64,000 nt of DNA from Marsupella aquatica. Lineage: Eukaryota > Plantae > Marchantiophyta. The notes beneath the pieces are model-generated. The model had not been told where the DNA came from, ran no database searches, and was given only the letters and a program-made list of their open reading frames with translations. Of the stretch, positions 22,215 through 64,000 are shown piece after piece. Each line of letters opens with the position of its first letter. Positions within the stretch are counted from its first letter, which is position 1. The stretch covers positions 16,348,170 through 16,412,169 of the forward strand of contig OZ316895.1 in the NCBI GenBank assembly GCA_973895155.1, read 5' to 3'. A program made the position numbers and the translations under genes.

Positions 22215-23123
22215 CTAGGCCGATTGTTTCCTCTTCTTGACAACACCGTGGTTTTCTGGAATCGACTCACTAGATTCACAGGGTCCACTAACTTGTACCG
22301 ACGTCTGAGGGGGATCAACGCTCAACAAGTCTACTTCCTGCTTGGGAGATATCAATGCTACGGAAGCACCACCAACCCGAGGGCAATTCATCAATCCCCC
22401 GCCATCAAGTTCCTCATCCCCAATCCCTTCAGTTCGTCTGAAGAATGACTCCGCATCCTCATCCGTGAACTCGTCCAGACCGACAGCCGCTAATTCCTCC
22501 GTGATCGACGAAGTTGACTCCCATGACCCCGCCCGGACGAAAAAAGAAGCAGCGTCCTCTCCTTCTCGCACCTTCAAATCCAAATCCACCTCCATCTTCA
22601 CTGGCTTCTTAGCATCAATAGCAGGCTCCAGCTTCAGGGCTTGTCTCAATCTGTTGACCATCTGTTCATCCTTGATCCCATTGGAGCGGGCTAAATACGA
22701 TACGAAGTCTTCATCTGGTCTAGGAGACACGTCGTCAACAAGTCTGGACAGCCGCTCCTGGTTTAAACCACCTTCCCTGGCAAGGAATGAATGGAAGTCC
22801 TCATAAGCGTACAGCTTTGACGTTTTCCAAGGAATTCCGTCCACTACTGCATTGTCGGATCCTACCACTTTCAAGACATTCTTGGTCGCTTCCTGGGACT
22901 TCAGGGGTTTCATAGGTTTCACCTTCTCGAATGCATCTGTTATAAAGGCCTCGGTGGTCTCAAATCCATCATCCTTATCTTTATCTTCGGTCACTACCGC
23001 CTCATAAACCTTTTTCTTCGGTGTCACTTTAGGGCTATGGTTGAAAAGGTCATCGAGCGGCTCAAATTTCAGATGCAACGGGAATTCATTCCACAAATCA
23101 ACGATGTCTTCCGGGATTGCCAT
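22215..23123 (-). CDS. hypothetical acidic protein (302 aa from the ATG) with a 4x internal motif and a C-terminal basic NLS-like patch
   Basis: Long stop-free ORF with protein-like composition, ending VVKKRKQSA*. A CT/GA-rich promoter/UTR-like tract lies at 24240-24480. The true start could be in an upstream exon. Confidence 0.7.
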   Translation of the reverse strand: MAIPEDIVDLWNEFPLHLKFEPLDDLFNHSPKVTPKKKVYEAVVTEDKDKDDGFETTEAFITDAFEKVKPMKPLKSQEATKNVLKVVGSDNAVVDGIPWKTSKLYAYEDFHSFLAREGGLNQERLSRLVDDVSPRPDEDFVSYLARSNGIKDEQMVNRLRQALKLEPAIDAKKPVKMEVDLDLKVREGEDAASFFVRAGSWESTSSITEELAAVGLDEFTDEDAESFFRRTEGIGDEELDGGGLMNCPRVGGASVALISPKQEVDLLSVDPPQTSVQVSGPCESSESIPENHGVVKKRKQSA

Positions 23124-24709
23124 TCTCAGCGGTAGCGGAGGAGGTTCGTGAAACACAGACTACTCAGATACCAAACCAGCCGACTGTTCCGTTGAGCAAG
23201 GAGATGCGATGGCGCGATTTCACGCAGTAGTTAACTTCCTTCCAAACTCAGGATGCGTATCTGAAAACAGGTTCAATGCTCAGAGTAGTCACTACGAAAG
23301 CATAGATGACACATCGCATGCTCTCCGAAAAGAAACACATGCTCTCTGCTCACGCTGGTGGTCCAGTACTCTGACAAAATGTAATGGCGACGCGACAGGT
23401 CAGGTAAAGAGTAACGGTCAAGGCAGGTCTCATCTCAAGGTCATTCGGGGAGGAAAGGAGGAAAGGAGGTCGACGACCAACTGATCCCCGGTGACGTCAC
23501 TAGCCAAGTGGACATCCGAATTGCTTTTTTCACTGCAACTAGAATTGTGAAAGGGAGTGGAAGACCACTCCTTACAAAGAGCCGGCCAAAAGCAAAAACT
23601 TCAAACACATTCCACAGGTTCAAATCCGTACCAATAAACCGAACTTTTCACTCACAAACACATGCAGAGAAAGTAGACACAAAATAAAGCCTGCCATCTA
23701 CAAGACAGAGAAGATACAACAATTAAACGAAGAGCACGACAACATGAATCCACAAAACGGAAAAGACGAGGAAGCAAGGCGCTCCGAGATGTATCACCAA
23801 GTGCGCGAGGTTTCCACCGACAAAACTCGTTTCAAAATGCTCCAGCACACCTATCCATGCAATATCACAACCACAGAAATCACAGGTCTGCCTCTCACCC
23901 GCCGAAGCAGTTCAATAACAAATACACTTCTCGCGATCCCTCCTTTCCCCAGTCCCCCTCCCTCCGAGCTCCAAAATCACCAAACTAATCACCGACTGAC
24001 GGCAGATTTCTACTTTCTCCTCTCTTCCACTCTCAGTTTACAAAGAGATGACTGTACATGAATCGATTTATTCCGTCACATAGGGGAACAACCTCATGCC
24101 GAGCTCCAAAATCCCGAACCTAATCACTGACTGACAGCAGATTTCCACTTTCTATGTTCTTCCTCTCTCCGTTTGCGCAGAGATGACGGTACTTGTATCG
24201 ATGTGTTCGTCACCCACTCCCGGACCCACATCGCTCTTCTGCCCTCCCCTCCATTCCACTCCACCTCTTTTCGTCTCTTTTCTTCTCTTCTCTTCTCTTC
24301 TCTTCTCTCGTCTCCGATCCCCGGGAGGGCTTCACATCCACAAACGCACTCGAGTGCAAATCACTCACTCTCCTTCCTTCAGGAGGAGAGAGCGCAGAAT
24401 GGTCGATTTCTGAATCGTGGCTCTCTCTTTCTCCACTTCACGTTCTGTCTGTTCTGTTCTGTTCTGTTCTGTTCTGCTGGTCAAAAAGGGCAAAAAGGTC
24501 GTAACACGGTAACAGAGACGGCGCACTTTTCCCCTCCAGTTTTTTTTTCTTTGAGGGGCCCTAATTCCACCTCACTGAAAAGTCTGGTGTTTGTCTGGCT
24601 GGAATATGACGGCCATCTTTTTCTCTTTTTTTTTAATTTTTAGGGGACATGTCGAAACTCCATAGAAAGGGAACAGACAATCACAACATTTGAATTAAAG
24701 ACTTGTCTC

Positions 24710-36397: not shown

Positions 36398-37357
36398 TCA
36401 TACAGAGAAATCAGATCCCAACGACGCAGAATCACGATTCTTGCAACGAGGATTCGCCTGAACAATCCCATCGTAACACAACTGCAGTTGTCCATGAAGC
36501 TGCTGAAGAACCTTGTTTTCTCCGAACGCTGCTATCAACTCCGTTGGGGAGCGATACTTCTTTGCAATCTTAAGCAAAGTCTCGAATGGAGTCTGAAATT
36601 CCGCCGTAAGCCTCCGTTCACTCTGCAGCGATGCGCGGAAACCCGTTACATCAACTATTTCACGAACATCCTTCCACTGGTTCATGAGTTCTGGACTGAC
36701 TCCGTATAAATCCGGATAGACCTTCGGATCCTTCATTGTGCCGGTCAGGCACAACAAAGCGTCTACCACCGGTCGTCCGCGGTGCGCTGCTCGGTCCCCG
36801 CACTTGATGCGCTCGTCGTAATTCGCACATTTGCGCCGTCCCATTCGCCGTCGATGATGCTCCAGGTAACGTAGCCGAACTTCTATGCCGATGTTCCTGG
36901 CCGGGGTCTTCTGCAATTCCTCAAACTTAAGAGCACGGATCTCCTCTTGTTGCAAAACCCTGTCCGCTTCTAACTTTCCAATCTCTTTCCTGGCTTGACC
37001 GAGCTCGACCTGGTGGGAGCGGGCCTTATCCTCAAGCGCGCGGATCTCCTCCTCTTGCCGATGCCTTTCCGCTTCTAACCTTCTAATCACTTCTATTTGC
37101 GAGTTCGCCTCAACCTTAAGTGCACGGATCTCGTTGCGTCGCACCTGCCTTCTTTCTTCTCGATATTCAATCTCTGCCCTCATTCCAGCTAGCTCGGCTT
37201 CGTAGGAAGCTCTCGTTCGAGCTAGCTCGTCTTGGTACGAGCGCACCTCGGACTTGAGTGCACGGATCTCATCGCAGTGCAGCACCTTCTCTGTTTCTAG
37301 CTTTTCATTCGCTTTTCTCACTTGAACTACGTAAGCTTCGAGGCTCTTGTACTCCAT
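36398..37357 (-). CDS. intronless coiled-coil protein (EIRAL[KE] repeats) with a fungal-like C-terminal domain
   Basis: 319-aa ORF from the ATG at 37357. N-terminal coiled coil with repeated EIRAL[KE]; C-terminal GDRAAHRGRPVVDALL...YPDLYGVSP. Confidence 0.72.
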   Translation of the reverse strand: MEYKSLEAYVVQVRKANEKLETEKVLHCDEIRALKSEVRSYQDELARTRASYEAELAGMRAEIEYREERRQVRRNEIRALKVEANSQIEVIRRLEAERHRQEEEIRALEDKARSHQVELGQARKEIGKLEADRVLQQEEIRALKFEELQKTPARNIGIEVRLRYLEHHRRRMGRRKCANYDERIKCGDRAAHRGRPVVDALLCLTGTMKDPKVYPDLYGVSPELMNQWKDVREIVDVTGFRASLQSERRLTAEFQTPFETLLKIAKKYRSPTELIAAFGENKVLQQLHGQLQLCYDGIVQANPRCKNRDSASLGSDFSV

Positions 37358-38194
37358 ACTGATGGGCACGGCAGACTAGTACTGCAGTGAAATTTCGCAA
37401 ACTTCTTGGTATACTGAGGGACTACATCTAATCCGATTCTACATCCCGTAACGCTTCAGTGTATGCAGTATGGTACCGAAATTCCCATCAATGGCTTCAT
37501 TTGCTCATTCAAGCTCGAAGTTAGTCTTGGAGGTTGGGAAATTGGAAGTACGAGAATGCAGCATACGTAGTTGTAGCGAACTTCTCAAACCATCAACGAT
37601 TTCATGATCTTGGTGAGGTCGAATTGTTCACAGAGGCAGCAGAGAAGTGCGATTGACCGGTGATTTGATGACTTTTTTGGTCATTCGACCGGAGACCTCG
37701 TGGTCTTGGAGGTTGGGACTGGGAAGGTTCTGGAGTCGAGGTGATTGGTCAATTGGACAGATGAGATTCGGAGAGAATTTTCTACATCTTTGAGATAAAG
37801 GGCAGAGATGGTGCAGCGTAGATTTGGAGTATGGTGGAGAACATGCAATCGATGATGTTTGATACGAACTTCAAGGTCGAATAATTTGGTCGGTTCGAGA
37901 GCTAAGAGCAATTTTTTGGACTGATCCAGGGATTAGGGGCACTAGGCTGAAGGTTTCAATCGGAAACTTTCCCTTGACGCTATACTAGGCATCTCGCTGT
38001 GTTTGGTTACTGTAAGGAGTAAATCACCTGAATGACTATACCCTATAATCATCCTCCACACTAGAGATCAGTTTCACAGCACCAACGATTACAATCTTGA
38101 ACCCAATAAGAAGATAAGCAACCAACCCAATAGAAATTTGAAACCGTGCATTGTCTTCCAAATAAGCTTCACACCACCATAGACTACAATACTG

Positions 38195-50845: not shown

Positions 50846-53450
50846 ATGAGTGACTCGAAGGATACTGGAAGAATCGACCTCGGTGGAGCTTCAGGTTTGC
50901 GACGGTTAGACGGAGAGTCTGAGGTGGAGCTGGTACCGTTTGAGGAGGAACAAGTAATACCGGTACGATCACCGGTGTGGCATGCAGTGGAGGAAGTTGT
51001 TCTACTACCAGAGCTGTCGGTAGTTGGGAAGAAGAGGAGATCGATGGCAAGATTTGGAGGAGTAAAGTTTGAGGTGGAGAAGTACGATGGTCGTACTGAA
51101 TACTTGCTCTGGGAGAAGCAAGTGAAGGGTGTTCTTCGGACCATGGACTTAGCTCATCTGCTCTCTTTGCGATAGCAGTATGATGGAGAGGAGGAGATTT
51201 TTGTGAAGCAGTGGAGATAGGAGCACGTGATTACTGTCAATGCGGTGATGCTATACCTTAAGCCGCATATCATCAAGAAGCTGGATGATTATGACGATTG
51301 CACATCACTCTTCAAGGCCCTAAGAGAGAAGTACTATCGAGAAGATGTGTCAGACCGACTGTACAAGAAGTCTCTCTTGATGAGCCTTAGGCTCAAGGAA
51401 GGGAGCAAGCTACAAGATCACCTGGATGAGTTTGAGAGTCTAGCGATGGATCTGTCAAACCTGTGTAAGGGAGTTGAAGATGAGTATAAGGCCTTGCTTT
51501 TGCTAAGCTCCTTACCGCCATCTTATCAAGGCTTAAAATAGGTGCTCTTGTACAGAGATCTTAAGTCCATTTTGTATAATGAGGTGGTGAGTTCTTTACT
51601 GTGTGATGATGCTCAAAAGAAGTTGGGTCAAGCACAGAAAGCATCTTCTTCTGGCACTGCGCTGAACGTGAACCGTGGAAGACCAGCGCAGCGCACGAAT
51701 GGGCAGAACAAATTTAGATCTACATCATGGGGGAGATTTAAATCCAGAGGGAAATCGCAAGAGAGGAAGCCTCTTACATGTTGGAGATGTGGCAAGCCTG
51801 GCCACATGAAAAGGGATTGTCGGGTAAAGGACCCTACCGCATCAGCTAACGCGGCATCAAGTGCACATGAGATAGATTTACTCAATGATGATGACATTTT
51901 ATGATGCCAAGGTTTTGCTCTCAATGTAGTGTCAAATCCAGGTAGTGATGACTGGATACTAGATAGTGCATGTACTTTTCACATTTTCTCAAGGAGAGAT
52001 TTTTTCAGTTCTTACACAGTTTCCAACGGTTCAGTGTTGATGGGAAATGGAATCCCATGTCAAGTAGTTGGACTTGGATCTGTTAGATTTCAGATGTTTG
52101 ATGGAGTTGTGAGAACGTTGAGGAATGTGAGACATATTCCTAGCATGATGAAAAATCTCATTTCATTTGGAGTTTTAGAAGCAAATGGCCATCGGTTGAG
52201 TTCTGGTAATGGTGTCTTTCAGGTTTCAATTGGTACTAAAGTTGTATTGAAGGGAAAGAGACATAAAAATCTATACGTTTTGGAGGGCAATGTAGTCTGT
52301 GATGAAGCCAATGTAACCTTATCTCATGAGGAGACCGCCCGGCTGTGGCACTTCCGACTGGGTCACATGAGTGAAAAAGGTTTGGCTGTTCTTCAAAAAA
52401 AGGGATTACTTTCTAATTTGCAATCTTGTAAGTTAAAATTTTGTGAGCATTGTGTGCTTGGAAAGCAACACAGGAAACCCTTCAGAGTTGGAACTCGCAC
52501 CAGCAAGGAGGTACTTGAGTATGTACATAGTGATGTGTGGGGACCAGCCCCTACTCCCTCACACTTTGAACTGTTATACTATGTCACGTTCATTGACAAT
52601 TACTCAAGGTATGTGTGGATATACTTTCTACACAATAAGTCTGATGTTTTTGCCACTTTTAAGGAGTGGAAAGCCCAAGTACAAAATCAGACTGGTAATA
52701 AGGTGAGATATCTTTGATCGGATAACGGCGGTGAATACAGTTCTGGTGAATTTGGAACGTATTGTAAGGAGCAGGGGATTACCTACCATCTCACAACAAG
52801 TTATACTCCACAGCAAAATGGTGTTTCTGAGAGGCTCAACCGAACACTATTGGACCGCTCGAGGAGTATGTTGAGTCAATCATGCTTACCACATGAGTTT
52901 TGGGCTGAAGCTGTCAACACTGCAGCTTATTTGGTAAATTTCTCTCCATCAAGTTCTATTGGATTCAAGATGCCATTTGAAATGAGGTACGGGCGTCCAA
53001 CAGATTATTCACATCTGAGGATTTTTGGATGTGATGCTTATGTACTTACACCTTCCCAGCTTCGATCCAAGCTGGAGTCCAAGTCGAAGAAGTGCATTTT
53101 CCTTGGCTATCAGAAAGGTGTAAGGGGTTATAGGTTATGGGATCCAGTACCCTATAAGCTAGTTGTCAGTAGAGGTGTGTCCTTTAATGAATCCAAATCA
53201 TCAAAGGAGGGGAAGAGTTCTTAGGACTCCCATACTGACAAGGGGAAATCCATCCATCCCAGACCGGGTTGAGGGGGAGATTAGTCATGACGTTGTTCAT
53301 GATAGGAGAGATGGAGAAGCTCCGGGCTTGGAGTTGGTTCCTGTGATGGAACAAGAGGAGCAGATTGTTGCTGGGGTACCTAAAGTTCAGCCAGCAGTAG
53401 GAGTAGATCAGCTTGAGTCATCTACAGTTAGAAGAACTTCCAGTTGTCTC
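50846..53450 (+). pseudogene. copia gag-pol (gag, CCHC knuckle, protease, GAG-pre-integrase, integrase) with premature stops
   Basis: CWRCGKPGHMKRDC; WILDSACTFH; LWHFRLGHMS...CEHC; VHSDVWGP, FIDNYSRY, *SDNGGEY, PQQNGVSER; CIFLGY. Several in-frame TAG/TGA. Confidence 0.95.
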
Positions 53451-54055
53451 GGGGGCCTTAGTATACAGAGGCCCCCATACCACGCTCGACGTTTTGGTCC
53501 CTTGTGACCCTAACTTATTAAGTAAAATATTTTTTTCTCCCTCCCTACCATGCTTAGAAGAATTCCAAATCCTTAAATTTTGACCCCTAAAAAAGGTTGA
53601 GTAAATTTTTGTCTTCATTTAAACATACCTTACTAAGAAAAGAAAAGTTCTTTCAAATGCACACCTTTTTTGAGTGTTTGTCAAGATTATTCGAGTCTTA
53701 TTGAAGCCCTCCTATGCTCCTTTGCATTGGCATCCATGATGTCTCATCATAAAAAACTTATAGTATATAGTGTTGATGCTTCCACTAAGAATCTCAATTC
53801 TAGTAGAAGCTTCAGCAATATACAATATGAGTTGTTCATATTTGCAATCTCCTATGTTTACAGTCTCATGTGAAAGGTAGGTGCACCAAAAGGAAATTGA
53901 GTTAACAATCTGAATGAGTGTATGTGGCAGAGGGGAATTGAACCCTTGATTGAGCAAGAAGCTCAAGTATCCAAATCTGCCACCCCCTAACCTATTCCCC
54001 TAACCTATCCCCTGTACCTACTTAAACCACTACCATGACTATGGATACATGCACA

Positions 54056-57000
54056 TCATTCAACTCTAGACATGGTCTCTAGATAAGTATCCAAAGCTTG
54101 TTTGTCAACTCGATCTAACACATACACTAAGCCAATCCCTTGTTTCATGGTCAGAGTAACATTAGTCATCACCATTTCTATATCAATCCATTGTAAATCA
54201 GTAGTATCATAAGTGAATTCAACCTTGCTTGAGCTTGTTGGCTTATACCAATTAAATAAAAATTGACAAATACTCCCTATGTGTCCATGAGGAGGTGTAG
54301 GCCTGTCAAGCAAATCAATAGCAGATCTCACTCTAGTCCATTGTCCCTTAACTTTCTGTCTCATCATCATAATCCGACCAAGCCAAAATTCTTTCTTGGC
54401 TTGAACTTCTAGTTCCTGAGTCCTAGCTTTACCTCTTCCCTTACCTTTCCCCTTCTTTGATCTTGTAGAAGGGCCTGCAGCATTAGCACTGTCAAATGCT
54501 ACTCCACAATCACTCCCAACATCAACAAAACAGGTCACAGTATTTGGATCACATTGTTTCCTCTTACCAAGATTATATGCCACTTGTTTCGCCCTTGTGA
54601 GCCTATCCTTGGACAAATGAGGGTTGCCCACTAGTTGACTCACCAAAGTAGATTTGTAAATTGTTCTGCCCTCATAGGTAACTGTAGGCAACACCTTCCT
54701 CTTTTCCTGTAGAGGGCTCTGAATAGACTCTGTAAGATCAGCCACAACAGAAGACAACACATGACGAACCTCATGCCCCAAAGTATCTATCTCTATAGAA
54801 TGAGGTTTTGGTACATCTAACTCAACCCCATCCTGCAAAACATCGTTAGGAATGGTTAGCTCATCTGTCAACCATGCATCAATTCGATTTAGATCTTCCT
54901 TGAGCAGGGTCTTCAAATTCATGAAACTCTCCTTCTGGACGAGGTCGAATTGGAGATCTATGCTCTACATGGTCTTCAGAATCGTCAACAACAACTGCCT
55001 CTGCTATGACAGCTGAATCTGGCCATGTTTCAACTTCCACATGCCAGGGGTGAGTCCACCATCGCTTTCTTGATGCTGGCAGATCACTTCGGGGAGACAT
55101 TTGCAACCTTCTAAGGAACTCTTTTGCTTCTTCGAATCCTTCTTTCAAGGCTGTAACCACCAACTCATTAGTTTGCACTTTAGAGTAATCAAAAAGATTA
55201 GGTGCATCTTCACCTTCAAGTAAAGGATGAAGCTTGGCCCACACATGATCTTGCTTCTTATGTGATCGAGCTACTTTCAAGCCCTCTGGTCCACATTCTA
55301 ATCCAGCAAGACGATTCAACCCAACAGCACTATCTAACAAAGAGCCAAAGTCATAATTCCTCTCATGGCCACTCATTCCACCTACCTTGCTTAAAAAGAT
55401 CTCACAACAATCAGAACCCAACTCATGAAATAAAATGCACAAGTGAGAAAATTTATCACGAAATGCACATACAAGCAACACAATGAACTGGCAAGACATA
55501 TTAACATCATGAAAAGCTTGGATTGAAATCATATTTTTCTTTGTATGTGAAGCAACATTTCCACCTACAGCATGATCACCATACCTTAACCACAACCTCC
55601 ACAGTCGAAAGAACCAAGAAACTTTGCCTGCCAGTTTTACTCTAGTCCTTAGATCATGTCTCTGGGAGTAGAAACTATCAATATAATCTGCACAGATCTG
55701 CAGATACAACTCTGTCCCCAAGCTTCGTTCATACAACATATCAATTCTTGCATGTAGATCTGTTAAACATTCACGCACCTTGTTTGATGCTATCCTCTGA
55801 GGACCAGCCCAATTCTGACGGTCAGATCTATTTACATCATCCCAATTCAATCCATGTTGATGAATTGGGTAATGATTGTACACATTACAAACATGAAACA
55901 GAGAAGCATGTTGGTCTCCAAGTGCCATTATTGAGGACACTCGATCTAGTGGGTTAATCAATTTTTTCCCACTGTGAGGTTGGTCTTGATCACCAAAACC
56001 ATAGAGGTCCCCATTAGGCAATATGGCAACTGAGTAAGACCATCCTTCCCACCCTACAGAAAATCTAGGGTAAATGCCATTTTCTCCTCTGTAGTCTTCT
56101 AACATCAATTTTCTGCGTCTTGCATCACCATCACTAGCATGCCCAAGCAAAGGACCTACAGAGTCTCTGCAATGCACATCCCAAGATTCCTTCAATTGCA
56201 CCCAATGCTCTCGAACCTATTCTGCCTTGAATTTGTTACATGTTGAAATAGCACAGAGGGCCAACTTTGGCATTCCAACATGCAATGGATTCACAATGAC
56301 AACTCTAGCATACATGCCCTTGTTAAAATCCTCAAATGTATTTACAATCTTGTTATAGCCATCCTCACCGTCACCTACAAGAATTTCTAATCCAAATTCA
56401 TAGGTGTGCCCATCCTTATGGCCACAGAAACCAATCAGAGTGTCATATTTGGCCTCCCACCTGCACAGAGCCCAATGAGAACCAAGTCAGATTCAAAGAA
56501 TTGGTTCAAAACTACATGCATCACAAATAGTCTTCACCTCCAATCACATCATTATGTGCTATTGCAATTGACATACCGTGGGCTTTCCTTGATCCTGGTT
56601 TCATCCTCTGCAAACATGACAGGCACATCCCCTACAATCCCCAACATCTCCTTTGTAGCAGACAGAATTCGAGCCACCTCCTTGAATGTTTCTGGCCTAA
56701 TCCCAACACAAAATTGCACAAATTTTGCTCTATCTCGTTTTAGTGTCTTCAGGCTTGGCCCAGATAAGTTTCTTGCAAAAACATGTGCCACCTGCCGGCC
56801 TCCATATTGAAACATAGCCTGAGCAATGGCTTTTTTTTTTACTGTAGCAAAACCCCCTTGCACTTCTCTCCAAATTTCTACCTACATCCTTCAAGAAATC
56901 CCAAAGACCTTCTTTTCCACCAAATGCACCATTCCTATGACCATTGACAATACTCCTTAAAAAAAGTCTCAAATCTTTTCTATCTGCAGCTACTCCTAAC

Positions 57001-58632
57001 AGTTCTTGCAATTTTCTCTTCCTAGTACTCAGGGCACACACTTTCTGAGTCTGTAGTGCCAACAACCATCTCTCCTTTCTTCTCTTGATATTCAAGCCAT
57101 GCATCTGTGTACTCAACTTTGGACGTGTCAAATAACGTGCATTCAAACCACCCTCTGTGCTTCTTTCCCCTCTCTTTGCTAAAGCCTCCGCTTCCCTGTG
57201 CACCCATCCACGAAAGTCATCTTCTAGTGTTATAGCATGACATCTACTACAAGTTAGGTTCAGAAAACCCCCACCATACAAGGACAACCTACAACAATCT
57301 TTATGCCTAAATAATCCTTCTATATGTACAGTAGAATTTGTGTTAGGATTGTAGACATGAACAGAGATTGTAGCATCCATATTCCACACATGTCCTCCCT
57401 GCTGATCATGCAAGATACCCTTCACAGCATACTTCACATTCTTCCACTCTACATATTCATCCCATATTCCCCAACAGAGCAAACTTAAGCCCACATCAAT
57501 ATCTCTAGACCCACCTGTGCCAGAGCTGTTGCTTGCATTGGAAGCATCCTCCTTTGAAGAATTTTAAGATTGAATTCTGTGAAGGATGTTGATCCCTCTC
57601 ATCTGGCTTCCTTGGTCTTCCCCTCTTTCCAGATCTCAATGCAAGTTCAGCAGTATTCTCTCTGGCTTCAACTACATCCAGGTGACCTCGACTGACCAAG
57701 TGTGTCCTCAAGTTGTGATCCAAAGTCCCTTTCTTACAAACCAAATCCATGATTGCCCCACAGACTTTGCAACGAACCTTATAAAGGAACCACTTGTTTG
57801 CATTATTGGCTGGACCAGGCACACGGGGCACATGAAATAACTCATCATCACCTCCACACTCAACATTCAGATTCTGGACTATCTCTAGGCCAGTTGCTAT
57901 GGCACCCTCATAATCAAACTCAAGCTTCTGTGCAAGATCAGAGGGCTTCAACCCAGTCATAGCAATACCCCTTCTCCTACAGTAATTGTCTTTGTGTTTA
58001 GCAAAGGCAAGGTGCTTGGTCTTAAAATTGCTGAACAAATTAGCAATTGACTTCTTATCTTGGGAATTATCTACTCTCCCATAGACCACTCTACACTCAA
58101 GACACTCCAGATGGCCTCTCACATCCTGTCCTTCATCCCATGTTCGAACTCTCCAATTATGATTTTTATAACCATTCTTCTGAATCCACTTCTCCAGTCT
58201 TGTAAATTCATCATTCCAGACTTTGACAGCCACCTTAGACATCAGAATAGACTCAAAAGAAGCTCTCACAGGGGGAGCTTCTTGAAGCTGTTCACCCTGG
58301 GAAGAGTCCACTGCAACCGATTGGGTGACAGGAGCGGAAACTGATGGGAACCCTGTCCTAGCAAAAGGTAGGGATCCAATTTGTTCAATGACAACAACTT
58401 TCCCATCCAATTCAGACAACTCAGTCATTTTCTCACTATTGACCTTCATGCGACCAGGAAGCCTATAATCCCAGAAATCAAAATCAAAATCAACCAATTC
58501 AGGAATTTGACTTCGAAAATCAGCTAAGGTTTGTCCTTCTTTGAAGGCCAACACAGCTATAGGTTCTTCATCTTTCCCGTCAGTCACCCCATCCCTTTTT
58601 TTGTGCAATAGCTTCACAAACTGGGTAGCCAT
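54056..58632 (-). pseudogene. P-element/THAP9-like DDE transposase with N-terminal C2H2-type zinc fingers and AT-hook; one intron, several frameshifts, one premature stop
   Basis: ORFs 57505-58692, 56730-57494, 56552-56863, 54879-56201 and 54056-54922 join through frameshifts and a GT-AG intron at 56461-56576. Motif order: AEDETRIK, W...DTLIGFCG, ARVVIVNPL, ASDGD, DQPHSGKK, DRQNWAGPQRIAS, GSDCCEIFLS. This parallels P transposase FDEM..., SD.G, DxxHxxK, the GTP-binding insertion and QDxxE.FF. Confidence 0.72.
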
Positions 58633-58887
58633 TTCAATCAACTGGTTCAAGTAAGTTAAAGCATCAAGGGTTCTAAATACAATCACAGACACATATTGAA
58701 CCTGCCATACATAATGAACCTGCCATCCAGCACAGTAAACAACACAATATGAATCAAATTAGAGACTGCTCAAAAAACCTTTTCATAACCACATTTAAAG
58801 ACCAACACAAACAATTCTTGTTGGTTATTGTTCACATGTGATTAGCCCAGTGAAGAAGTTTGCTTTGTACTATCAATTTCACAAACT

Positions 58888-59547
58888 CTAAGACGTATGA
58901 GGCTGAACAGGGACCAAGTTGCCCTCAAATATTGCATGCCTATGACAATAAATGAAACGCCACCCTTCCACATCCCAGTGGTCCCTGCCCTTCACACACC
59001 TCCTGAGGTGTTTCACTCCCCCAGAGGTCTCATCATGACACCAACTTTGAGGGCACCTGCGACACTATACAAAGTCCTTAATCCCATCCTTGTAGACTTT
59101 ACAGTACTCACACCTTGGGCATATTAGGGTTTTTGGATTGGTTGGATGAGACCTCTGAGGCAGTGCCCCAACCATAAGTAGCACCCTAAGGCAGCCAGGG
59201 TGATAATGAGAAAAGCAATCCGAGTGGGCACAATGGAGCACAAGAGATTCCTGTGTAGTGGGATGTTCGAATCTTCCAATGAGTCCACAAGCAAAGCATC
59301 TAGCTTTGTCGGCAGCACACAATTGACAAACCCAGGGTGTCCTCCAGTCATTGTTCTCAGGCAATGTGACAGGAGTGAAAATGGGCCCCTGCATACCTTT
59401 TCCACCAACAAAGTGAAAATGTCTACTACAAGGCCCATCACAGAATACCACATCATCTGTCTCATCACAAAAGAAACAACAAGGGGGATCCATGCAGTGG
59501 TGCTCCTTATGGGAAAATATATCAATCCTTGGCACATCAGAAGCCAT
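58888..59547 (-). pseudogene. EDM2/NSD-type composite PHD zinc-finger gene carried by the transposon
   Basis: CFFCD...FCDGPCSRHFH...CQLC; CFACG...HCAHSDCFSHYHPGCL...ICP. After an in-frame TAG (59065-59067) it reads CRRCPQSW; after a frameshift WEGWRFIYCHRHAIFEGNLVPVQPH. Same succession as the EDM2 PHD module as recalled (CRRCPKSYH ... AWDG...RVLIYC..H.I...L.TP..DH). Confidence 0.8.
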
Positions 59548-59680
59548 CTCGGCTTGCCAGATAGTGAGTTTACCTCTGCACAACAGATCATTCACTTAGA
59601 ATCCATTTTCAGCCCCTCAACATTCAACATTAACTTGGTAGTTATTGGTCAAACAACACATACTTAACATTTAAGCATAC

Positions 59681-60155
59681 CTTTAATGCCTTATCAAGCA
59701 AGAGATGTAGCAAATGTTGTTTGAGGTCTGCTCCTTCCATAGGTTTTTGGATCTGAACTGTGGTATATTGCTGAAGCTTCTGAGATGCCTTCACTATGCC
59801 CTAAACCTATCAGGAAACCAACCCATCCTGCAAGAACAGTTGAGAGCATGTACTAATTTATCAAAAACCTGACTGATTTCAAAGAGACAACCTGCATGCG
59901 GCCAAGTTCATTCTTGGTAGAAATTGAGTCCCTGGTAGAGCACAAACCTGCTTAGATAGGAGACTAAATAGAGAAGGAGGAAAGGCAATTGAACCCCTAC
60001 CATGAAACATCCAATAAGACCAAAAAGAAAAGAAGAATCTGAATGAAATTCAAGCTGAGCTCACTAGATTTTAGCATACCTTGGCAAATACTGGTTCGAG
60101 TTTATAGACTTTAGACAGCTCCTCGACAATCTGCCGTGTAATCTTCTTTGACAAA
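59681..60155 (-). other. putative coding exons of an additional spliced gene, or of the PHD gene's 5' part, inside the transposon
   Basis: Segments 60080-60155 (LSKKITRQIVEELSKVYKLEPVFAK) and 59681-59800 (GIVKASQKLQQ...LLLDKALK) are open and bounded by AG acceptors and GTATGC donors. Confidence 0.45.
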
Positions 60156-61419
60156 CTGCACAACACAATGGCAGATGAATGTCAATCAAAGCTTTCTTTT
60201 TTTGACTGATTTTATCTTGAAACATACAAACACAATGTCAGAATCATAGGATCACAAAAGCAAATCAATTCACCATTCATAAAACAAACTAATAAGCAGA
60301 GCAGTCATTACAAAGCTTCCAAGAGTACTCAGTATTCAACATTGTTTGAGACTTAGTAGACAGCCTCAAGTGACTTCGACAGCAGATTGAACTCCAGCAA
60401 CAAGTTCTCCAACCTCGAGTGAACTTCAGCTCAGATTGAACTCCACCCTCAAGTGACTTTGACAGCAACAAGTTTCTAATCTGAGCGAGAATCTAAGACA
60501 TCTGAGGCAGGATTTGAGGCTTAACCAATGTACATATTTATAAGTTGAATTGACGTAACTGATAATAATTTGATTGGGCCTGTCTACTGTAATTATTTGG
60601 CATTATGTTGATACATTGGAGCTACTTGAAACTGAAGAGACAACGCCAAGATGGGTGCATGCTGCCAACCTAGGATGCTTCTGCCAACTAAGGACTTCTT
60701 TGGATGGAGCTAGTGAGCATCGAGAGGAAGCCCCGGAGGAAGCAATGAAGACAGACCTGGCTGCCCAACTGCTAGCTACATAGAAGCTGACTCTGAAGAT
60801 TGAAGACTATTGACTGAAGACAATTATAAAGAACTGAATCTTGATTTACTGTAGTGATGCTACACTGGATCCTCGGTATCGTTCACTTAGTTACTACTAC
60901 ATTGATAGACTCAAGGTGCTACGCCTACTCTATCGGGAGTGGGCTCAAGATTGATGAGCTTTCCTGTTGGACAGCTGCCACTTTAAACCTTTAAAGTGGG
61001 GCGAAAAGGCAGCAACTAAATTAAAGCTGAAAGATAGATCGACAGAAAACAGATTTGATAGACCTTGATGAGTGCAAGTGGAGCTAGATAGCGAAGGAAA
61101 AAGTAACAACACAGTTATCTCGCAACTCAAAAGCACCAAGATTGAGATAGAGAACTTCACCAAAAGTAGCTGTAGCAGATGAAGCACACCCAACCAAGCT
61201 TGATCAGCTCACAATGAGCACTTGTGCCCAGCCTTGGTTCACCTTGAACTCTCTATTGCAGCCCACAATGCAGCTCGCAACTCAGCACACCCAATCATAG
61301 TATGACGATAGCAGCAACGCTCGGTTCGAACTTGCCCAATCAATAGCCTCGCCAAATCATTGATAGCAGCAACTCCTTCCAAACTCGCCCCCAATCACAA
61401 CCTTCCCCAATCAGAGAAG

Positions 61420-61730
61420 CAATCAACGCCTCAATCAGAGCAGCAATATTAGCGCCTCAATCGTAGCGCCTCAATCATAGCAGCAATCGCAGCACAGCAC
61501 CTCAAGCCACAATCACCATAGCAATCGTAGCGCAACACCTCAAGCCTCAATCGCAGCAGCGCAGCTAGCACCTCAAGCCTCAATCGCAACTAGCACCTCA
61601 ATCACAGCAGCACAGCACCTCAAGCCTCAATCGATCAGCACCTCAAGCCTCAATCGATCAGCAACGCCTCAATCGATCAGCATTGCAGCAGTGCAACGCC
61701 TCAATCAATCAGCATTGCAGCAATGCAGCC
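61420..61730. repeat. low-complexity tandem repeats (CAGCACCTCAAGCCTCAATCG-like)
   Basis: Directly visible near the upstream end of the transposon's genes. Confidence 0.8.
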
Positions 61731-62438
61731 CCTACATCGCAGCCCCCGGCCCGCTTCAAAGCTTTTTCTTTGTAAAAATGTCGATGCAACACCCAGCCCC
61801 CGATCCCCAAATTTTCCTTCACAAGCGCATTCGAATCATGTTCCCTAACCAGCCATCGCAAACTACAGCCGATGGATGGCCCAACAAATGGATGGATGGA
61901 TGGCTGCCCAATTTTACCCTAAACTTGGTGTTGGACGGCTACGGCAACTAGTAACAAGAAACGGTCCCTTCCATGGACCCGAGCGACCAAATATATGGCC
62001 CCATGATTTCACCCAAACGGCTCTAACTAGGATCGACGGACCTAAGTGGCCATCGAGTGGCTACCCTAACCCTTGCTCTCCCCCCCTCCCTGTCCACCTC
62101 CTGCTCACACAAACAATTTGAAATTTTCCCTCAAAACTCTATGAAACCCACATGTTGCCCCTAAACCATGTTTATGCAAGGGAGTGCCACGTGGACCAAT
62201 TAAAGGTTGACGCGTGTCACTAGTATATTTTCTTTCTCAACATACCCTATCTTAAACGTACAACTTATATTGAAGAATTGAGTTTTTACCCATCCCTACC
62301 AAACTTCTAAGTTGCACTATTTATTTTTATACCCCTAAAGTTCTTCAACAAAACTTCTTAAGTCTTCCGCGACATCGAATTAAAAAACCCTATACTTAGT
62401 CGCGCGTGATGGGTTGGAAGGAAATAAGTGAGGACCCC

Positions 62439-62625
62439 GAGTCAGTCGTTCTACTAGAGCTCCTACCAGGTATGATCAATGGGCAGACTCATCTAAGCTA
62501 GATGATATTGACATTGCACCTGATGATGATGATATGGCTTTGATCTTGGAAGAGGGAGAGTCTTCTTCGTACAGTGAGGCTTGTGCTTCAGAGCAGAAGC
62601 ATGAGTGGAATGCAGCAATGCAGAG
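62439..62625 (+). pseudogene. copia pol IN-RT linker fragment
   Basis: SRSTRAPTRY...ALILEEGESSSYSEACASEQKHEWNAAMQR. Confidence 0.85.
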
Positions 62626-63857
62626 AGTTTGGTGTTTGAGGTCCCGGCCGGGGACCTCAAACACCAAACTACAGGGCCCAAACTCTATCGCTCTAATTCC
62701 GGCTTACAAACTATTAAAAAAAGTCTACATGAACTACCTATATTTGACAAAATTGCTACTCACGTTTCAAACGGAAGGAGCTTATATACCAGCTATAGAA
62801 TCTGTCCGACACAAACTTACAAACTCCAGGACTGCGGACTCCGATACGCGCCTGGATGGCATGATAAAATTTGAAAAAACCATTGCCAGACTCGAGATGC
62901 GTAGCGGAGTCCAGTTAAATTTTTCAAATACATACATATGTATATATATATATAAATGGAAAAAATATATCTACCGGTTTTACGAAAAAAAGAGGTGGAA
63001 GGCCTTCGCCCTCCAGGGCATCGTTCAATAAATTTGAACCTGGTGCAATAAATCCTTCGTAGTTTTGAAAACTGAACCAAACGGCTGTTCCAATTCTGTA
63101 TAGTACTCGGAGAAGGCTTTGTATTTTGAATGGATATCAAGCCTTTTCCTACTATATTCTGCCGACGTGAGGCGCATATTTGCTACATCTTATCTTGGCT
63201 GGGAGTAATCCCGGCATTTAGTTATGAATCCATCTCAGGTAAGCTTACATGCATATAATTTGTATCGAAAACGAAAACACCCAAATTTATCTACCTTATA
63301 GCAAAATAAATCTTATTGGACCCTTGTCTGTAAATCCACTTTTACGAAGTTGGCCGTGATGGCGACCTCGACTCCTACCGCCCTTAGGCTCGTTTCTAGC
63401 TCCTTTTGAACCAGGTTCAAGAATCTGTTGTCTCAAATTTTTTGCCGCATGAGGCCTATAAGCACTTGCTTATCTATTTTATTGAAGCATTGCGTTTCAC
63501 CTTCTACGAACCAAACAGTACCCACAAAGTCACAACGTATCTGCTTCAAGCAGGTATGTTGGGAGCGGCCCGGTCAAAATCCATGAGATCCTTAGGTGTA
63601 AAATGTGATGCTGTACCTGGTCGTTTGAATCAAACTTCCATTTTTATTAAACGAGAGGGTGTTAAATACTATGGCCAGTGCAGTTGGAAAGCATAATCCG
63701 TTTTTAACCAAAGCGGTTTGCTAGGGGCAAAACCACAACAAACACGGCTGATGATAAAATACCAGCTAGAGACACGTGGATTATCTCAGGCAACAGCCCG
63801 AGACCCTTTAAGAGGTTCGTAGAAACTATTTCATGGAAGTTCAAAGCGGCTAGTTTA
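62626..63857. mobile_element. 1232-bp non-coding, non-TIR insertion with a perfect terminal hairpin
   Basis: Flanked by AGAG (62622-62625, 63858-63861); removing the insert and one copy restores ATG CAG AGG GAG TTG (MQREL). 20-bp stem with 5-nt loop at 62626-62670. Confidence 0.8.
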
Positions 63858-64000
63858 AGAGGGAGTTGCAATCTCTGAGTGACAACAAGACATGGAAGCT
63901 GGTGGAGCTTCCAAGGGGTCAGCAAGTGGTGGACAGCAAGTGAATTTACAAGTTGAACGACAGTCCTTCAGAGGGTGGAGACAAGATCTACAAGGCAAGG
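63858..64000 (+). pseudogene. copia reverse transcriptase (RVT_2) start
   Basis: RELQSLSDNKTWKLVELPRGQQVVDSK*IYKL...IYKAR. Confidence 0.88.

Follow-up and report, generated by a model that had tools for sequence, protein, structure and literature searches.

A 64,000-nucleotide stretch of the genome of Marsupella aquatica (contig OZ316895.1, positions 16,348,170 to 16,412,169; hereafter the window) contains a dead member of a cut-and-paste DNA transposon family present in several copies, whose transposase very probably belongs to a divergent branch of the P superfamily without the THAP domain. It is placed there because the predicted fold of the enzyme, its language-model neighbours in the Atlas, a match of one family member to the P-type helix-turn-helix (HTH), the DxxH and DxxE motifs, and an 8-bp target site duplication (TSD) agree, which bears out the P-related transposase proposed in a preliminary description of this DNA. 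That description covered the transposase gene only; the gene stands, but the ends of the element, its TSD, a predicted ubiquitin-like domain, a predicted C-terminal barrel, and another gene, which encodes PHD fingers, had been overlooked. Coordinates are collected in Table 1.

Transposase gene and its place in the P superfamily

Five open stretches on the minus strand, running from an ATG at 58632 to a TGA at 54056, make up the transposase gene, and their sum approaches the roughly 1,500 aa of the protein first described when each break is read as X. The gene is considered real rather than a chance reading because it has 98 homologs (82 among 5,575 candidates and 16 among 3,111) at E-values from 1e-242 to 1e-13. 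The catalytic motifs, the two C2H2-like fingers, and the AT-hook were all found at the minus-strand places initially assigned to them. In the core, these are EDET (D at 56605), HASDGD (D at 56132), and DCCE (the DxxE motif, E at 55403), together with DQPH (the DxxH motif, followed by GKK) at 55985 and the DRQN motif DRQNWAGPQRIAS at 55823. The intron named in the preliminary description was also found: homologs are unbroken across the site, a GT..AG intron occupies the equivalent position in two related loci (L007 and L027), and in another host copy the region consists of 72 different letters. The frame is interrupted by frameshifts near 57553, in a T run at 56831-56840, and at 54901, and by a TAG at 56217-56219, the stop previously placed near 56220. 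The extra bases at 57553 (one) and 54901 (four) are missing from other host copies. With three frameshifts and one stop, the transposase copy in the window is dead.

The structure was modelled with AlphaFold2 (AF2) for a Riccia homolog (P0004) that is 52% identical to the window core, using an alignment of 71 rows drawn from the 98 homologs, and reached a predicted local distance difference test score (pLDDT) of 84.8. The fold predicted from this homolog model is of P type, an RNase H domain split by a helical insertion that resembles the GTP-binding domain (GBD) and lies where P transposases have theirs, as had been read from the sequence. In the VIA comparison, the Drosophila P transposase (6p5a) ranked first, with a Z of 24.9 and a root-mean-square deviation (rmsd) of 3.5 over 348 aligned positions, and Foldseek also returned the P transposase (E 3.9e-8) ahead of RAG1 (E 1.6e-3), consistent with the RNase H fold expected at the outset. 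RAG1/Transib and hAT transposases have an RNase H fold with a helical insertion in common with the family, but score far lower than P (Z 7.8-8.5, rmsd 5-8), the VIA runners-up being a RAG-like structure (Z 8.5) and Hermes (Z 7.8, rmsd 8.1). In the Atlas, all 10 of the 10 best family-bearing matches fell in the family or clan of the best match, which is TNP-like (P/THAP9). Of 39 distant representatives, one matched the P-type HTH (PF12017, Tnp_P_element) above the Pfam cut-off and a second matched it below; Pfam found no P-family domain and no HTH in the window transposase pieces.

Among the rows that hold a residue in the 71-row alignment, the first Asp is conserved in 44/45, the second in 57/58, the DxxH motif in 60/60, and the Glu in 47/47. 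It is very improbable that the element is of hAT type, although the N-terminal zinc fingers could be taken as BED-like, and 8-bp TSDs with short terminal inverted repeats (TIRs) also fit hAT. Against this stand the poor fit of Hermes relative to P, the lack of any hAT dimerisation match in Pfam scans of the window pieces, 22 proteins, 71 members, and 39 representatives, and the invariant DxxH after strand 5, which corresponds to the P-type D(2)H arrangement described in PMC3698922. With regard to GTP, whose contacts in the P transposase were taken from PMC7776569, the D528-like position is conserved in 44/48 rows and the D444-like position in 47/55, equivalence to Drosophila P being assigned by motif and spacing only.

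Several observations weigh against membership in the P superfamily. The structure was predicted for P0004 and not for the window's own broken protein, and 11-14% of the residues aligned by structure are identical to those of the P transposase. Ser occupies the S409-like position in no more than 27/61 rows, and the N447-like position lacks Asn, which leaves the use of GTP uncertain. Searches with the Pfam TNP-like models gave a divided outcome: RNaseH_N matched 2 of the 71 members (E at least 0.03) and GBD one of 71 (E 0.13), all below the cut-off, but these weak matches sit at the expected places in the protein. Sequence-profile searches of the PDB with two alignments missed the P transposase and returned chance rows only. 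The spacing from the first to the second Asp is 119 aa vs 73 in Drosophila, and the quick tree reported below was built without canonical P sequences. The THAP domain was found by Pfam in none of the window pieces, 22 proteins, 71 members, and 39 representatives, and by a crude pattern in 0 of the 282 fetched proteins, as a non-THAP N-terminus would imply. Finally, TIRs and a TSD occur together in only 1 of the 19 related loci with long flanks, many loci being truncated or decayed.

The low identity, the failure of sequence profiles to reach P, the missing THAP domain, and the longer Asp spacing could also indicate an enzyme that works like P but belongs to a separate superfamily, sister to P and not nested within it. 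The different terminal letters, the family's own C-terminal barrel, and its thousands of clusters point the same way. This alternative is considered improbable, since one member exceeds the P Pfam cut-off, the weak RNaseH_N and GBD matches are correctly placed, and the Atlas neighbours bear P-family domains. According to PMC4455052, proteins that converge when profile searches are iterated count as one superfamily in Repbase.

A divergent THAP-less branch of P would share with the known superfamily (P, 1360, Galileo, zebrafish P-like elements, and THAP9; structures 6P5A and 6PE2) a putative HTH, the split RNase H with a helical insertion, the D-D-E triad with DxxH and DxxE, short TIRs, the 8-bp TSD, the 3'-terminal G, and a spliceosomal intron (P features from PMC7776569 and PMC3698922). 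The window family differs from Drosophila P in size (about 1,490 aa vs an 87-kDa protein), in the predicted ubiquitin-like domain, the fingers, the AT-hook, and the Cys/His module that stand in the place of THAP, in the Asp spacing, in the CTCGGGG ends, in the extra predicted C-terminal barrel, in the second gene of the host's family, and in its land-plant hosts. P-like homologs have been reported from Amoebozoa and Aureococcus (PMC3985635). Such non-animal P-like transposases carry the P-type core outside animals, as the window family does, but the window protein has no Ulp1-type protease domain. An Atlas score of 0.94 was obtained for a Basidiomycota cluster without a Pfam label.

Ends, insertion site, and related copies

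The element family is multi-copy in the host: contigs from four sequencing runs were placed on 53380-53560 for junction analysis, and many copies begin at 53447/53448 with differing flanks. With the left end held fixed at 53448, a scan for the right end identified 62441 as the sole position among 7,544 tested with a 10/11 inverted match, at a TSD match of 6/8. The 11-bp TIR core thus matches at 10/11 positions, the ends are of the CTCGGGG type, and the two mismatches between CCAGTTGT and TCAGTCGT are both C/T. Both ends finish in ..GAG-3' and retain the 3'-terminal G. The empty site is represented by insertion-free contigs of the copia element, which join the left and right flanks and contain the 8-mer just once; the copia identity comes from Pfam matches to the gag, zinc knuckle, pre-integrase, and integrase regions. 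An X3 contig spans the exact insertion junction (53406-53500) with one difference, and the organism of the X3 run therefore carries the same insertion. In that run, the summed contig depth, which is not a copy number, was 11,000-58,000 over the coding part, compared with a depth of 28 in the junction contig. Five contigs from X8 end loosely at 62378, meaning that they agree with the window copy in the outer part and differ from it further in. The interior at 59971-62225 is likely specific to the window copy or its subfamily.

Some further repeats were observed in and near the element. A GC-rich hairpin (53451-53475, GGGGGCCT..AGGCCCCC) overlaps the left TIR, and the word AGGACCC lies within the right end (62431-62441). 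Within the element, two 19-bp stretches (53805-53823 and 59763-59781) form a perfect inverted pair, which was tried as the TIRs and rejected, as it has no TSD and the reads put the end at 53448; the pair is possibly a subterminal repeat left from an ancestral element that was shorter. X3 contigs connect 59549 directly to 59763. In addition, the same copia element contains a separate insertion of 1,237 bp (62622-63858), which is skipped by contigs and opens with a perfect 20-bp hairpin (62626-62670); it may be a Helitron-like or other non-autonomous element and is left unclassified.

A metagenome scan yielded 33 related loci, and the 19 with long flanks were tested for TIRs and TSDs. One of them (L003) is a complete element of 6,096 bp whose TIRs match perfectly over 26 bp and begin with CTCGGGGGGGTCACT; it has a perfect 8-bp TSD (8/8) and one unbroken open reading frame (ORF) of 1,493 aa containing D701, D820, and E1062. 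The TSD length is drawn from two insertions, the window copy and L003, and falls within the 7-8 bp typical of the P superfamily. The CTCGGGG start is common to the window left end, L003, L002, L004, L006, and L014; by a strict pattern the terminal motif was found in 3 of the 33 loci, and by a relaxed one near the 3' end of two more. In L006 (positions 38-56), a family-type TIR adjoins a truncated transposase, an arrangement that suggests a nested insertion. Loci L024, L025, L026, L028, and L029 encode a distant branch of the transposase family; their GC content is 62-68%, and two are labelled marine metagenome.

Kolobok elements have a TTAA TSD, and MuDR elements have TSDs of 9-10 bp and long TIRs. 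Both superfamilies were rejected, as both TSDs found here are of 8 bp and the TIRs are of 11-26 bp. The long spliced coding region and the chromatin-type domains might suggest that the gene has been domesticated and become an immobile part of the host genome, as human THAP9 has. This reading, extremely improbable in view of the TIRs, the TSD, the location within a retrotransposon, the many diverged copies, and the four lesions, is refuted for the window copy.

Table 1. Positions of the features in the window, with their basis or a remark.
Feature	Position	Strand	Basis or remark
Whole DNA transposon copy, 8,994 bp, non-functional	53448..62441	minus	contig junctions and inverted ends
TSD, left copy CCAGTTGT	53440..53447		6/8 identical to right copy
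TSD, right copy TCAGTCGT	62442..62449		flanks right end
TIR core CTCGGGGGCCT	53448..53458	plus	element 3' end relative to genes
TIR core CTCGGGGTCCT	62431..62441	minus	element 5' end relative to genes
Degenerate Ty1/copia retrotransposon (insertion host)	51221..53447, resumes 62442	plus	Pfam and contigs
Low-depth interior with tandem repeats (61408-61727)	59971..62225		contig depth
P-type transposase gene (placement very probable)	54056..58632	minus	two exons, about 1,485 aa, three frameshifts and one stop
Ubiquitin-like (beta-grasp) domain, predicted	58378..58632	minus	AF2 model and Foldseek
Two C2H2-like zinc fingers	57682..58104	minus	CLEC..HLAFAKH 58104-57994; CKVC..HLVSRGH 57771-57682
AT-hook-like KRGRPRK	57607..57627	minus	sequence motif
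Cys/His module C-W-G..H-x2-C..C-x2-C	57240..57476	minus	precedes coiled coil and HTH; order unlike THAP
Intron, 116 nt, GT..AG	56461..56576	minus	directly past first catalytic Asp
Split RNase H domain with helical insertion domain, predicted	55401..56605	minus	motifs and homolog model
SH3-like barrel, BAH/Tudor/chromo-like, predicted	54104..54511 (approximate)	minus	P0004 model and profile
Second gene, main exon, NSD-type PHD finger array	58888..59575	minus	in-frame stop 59065-59067
Second gene, three tentative upstream exons (60155-60080, 59947-59892, 59827-59681)	59681..60155	minus	AG/GT bounded, frame broken

Second gene and domains outside the core

The main exon of the second gene matches PF22908 (PHD_NSD) above the cut-off (E 6e-7), and a sequence search of the PDB gave weak rows only, the best being a pygopus PHD at E 0.28. 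The gene is thus comparable to NSD-type PHD arrays, and no methyltransferase-like domain was seen in it. It may also resemble plant EDM2. PMC7529245 describes EDM2 as having 2.5 atypical PHD fingers and binding H3K9me2.

The gene is most likely a captured chromatin-reader gene. It is also possible, with the balance leaning to the other side, that it encodes a true accessory protein of the element, acting in targeting or anti-silencing, and is not passive cargo. Such a role would fit its position directly upstream of the transposase on the same strand, the depth of the main exon, which equals that of the transposase in all four runs, and an X3 contig of another copy that crosses the spacer from the 3' end of the PHD gene to the start of the transposase (58609-58993). 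On the other hand, the gene is missing from all 33 related loci, all 282 fetched proteins, and the complete L003, which has no room for it, and is therefore regarded as a feature of the host's element family. No homologs were found among 124 candidates in a search of longer proteins only, and the upstream exons lie in the low-depth part.

Outside the catalytic core, window residues 1-356 were modelled separately (pLDDT 77.6, predicted template modelling score 0.46), with Foldseek as the single source of the N-terminal fold calls. Residues 1-85 form a predicted beta-grasp domain, for which the top Foldseek rows were mostly ubiquitin-like or UBX (best E 0.006, none at 0.001 or below). Both fingers were detected by pattern in six of the seven long plant-clade homologs and one finger in the seventh, and a GRP-type motif follows finger 2 in most long homologs. 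At the C-terminus, the predicted barrel (model residues 674-810) gave VIA Z values of 6.8 and below with many BAH rows; this likeness is one of fold only, from which a function does not follow. Among 36 long distant representatives, the barrel profile matched 20, the finger-region profile one, and the ubiquitin-like profile none; the N-terminus therefore marks the plant-associated clade. Some distant members carry extra modules, such as Tudor (P0094, P0103), SAP (P0116), C1 (P0126), and a weak PB1 (P0098), and P0135 has a long insertion inside the core with a weak UCH match.

Distribution, proposed mechanism, and significance

Of the homologs, 37 bear a species name: 35 from Riccia and one from Calypogeia (36 liverwort proteins), and one from the fern Adiantum. 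The land-plant host assumed in the preliminary description thus has counterparts in liverworts and one fern, and no flowering plant is among the named members. Seed plants account for 0 of the 37, but the word-index search has limited sensitivity and transposons are often masked in annotated proteomes; for these reasons, an absence of the family from seed plants is suggested only. In a quick tree of 52 rows (midpoint root, SH-aLRT only, with short fragments and cluster representatives left out), every plant row that bears a species name fell together with the window protein in a single clade of 41 rows (100); its closest neighbours there are two proteins without a species name, followed by four Riccia proteins (98). 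The deeper branches outside this clade are partly marine, high-GC records without species names. A full profile search, run as a single pass with the best 150 rows listed, reached 5,480 clusters at E<=0.001, of which 898 lie at E<=1e-30. The THAP-less lineage is wider than plants, and the plant-associated members form one clade inside it. Among viral contigs, none of 50 candidate stretches contained the family, and one of 49 candidates from prokaryote genomes did, a 2.1-kb contig of a metagenome-assembled genome that is likely stray eukaryotic DNA.

In the accessible part of a review of plant transposons (PMC10741241), P is not among the TIR superfamilies of plants, and a search of titles and abstracts, the literature covered here, found no description of land-plant P elements; Repbase, Dfam, and genome supplements were outside its scope. 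There is a minor though real chance that the family has already been catalogued in repeat databases or genome supplements. The P group, mainly animal, likely extends to liverworts, a fern, and the window host, and with this family land plants would join the hosts of P. The proteins of the family are annotated as hypothetical in liverworts and the fern because they fall below the Pfam cut-offs.

The mechanism proposed for the family takes as its observed basis the ends, the TSD, the multi-copy status, the intact relative, and the conserved catalytic triad, and is modelled on Drosophila P. The enzyme would bind sites near the ends through the two C2H2-like fingers and the AT-hook, which would replace THAP, and the HTH would contact the TIR. 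The D-D-E site of the RNase H domain would cut and join, attacking the target strands 8 bp apart. By the same analogy, GTP in the insertion domain would likely help to place the 3'-terminal G; this G is retained at both ends and contacts GTP in the P structure (PMC7776569). More speculatively, the BAH/Tudor-like barrel may read chromatin for target choice, and the PHD gene may be a captured chromatin-reader gene that spread with the host's element family.

A wider and rather unlikely scenario is that spore-bearing land plants hold a P clade of their own, lost or missed in seed plants, in which THAP was swapped for the ubiquitin-like domain and fingers, the BAH-like barrel reads nucleosome marks, and, in the window host, an EDM2/NSD-like PHD protein was recruited as a second gene for heterochromatin targeting or resistance to silencing. 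If this were true, L003 and other intact members would be P elements active in plants. An intact relative with perfect ends opens two questions to testing, namely whether all of the P superfamily depends on GTP and what substitutes for THAP in end recognition, and it could possibly provide a native cut-and-paste tool for bryophyte genetics.

Elsewhere in the window, two long ORFs on the minus strand (22215-23159, 314 aa; 36398-37375, 325 aa) have no Pfam family above the cut-off, and the nearby host genes include a protein kinase gene (about 10.8-17.4 kb) and a gene of the folate-carrier family (about 34.5-35.0 kb).

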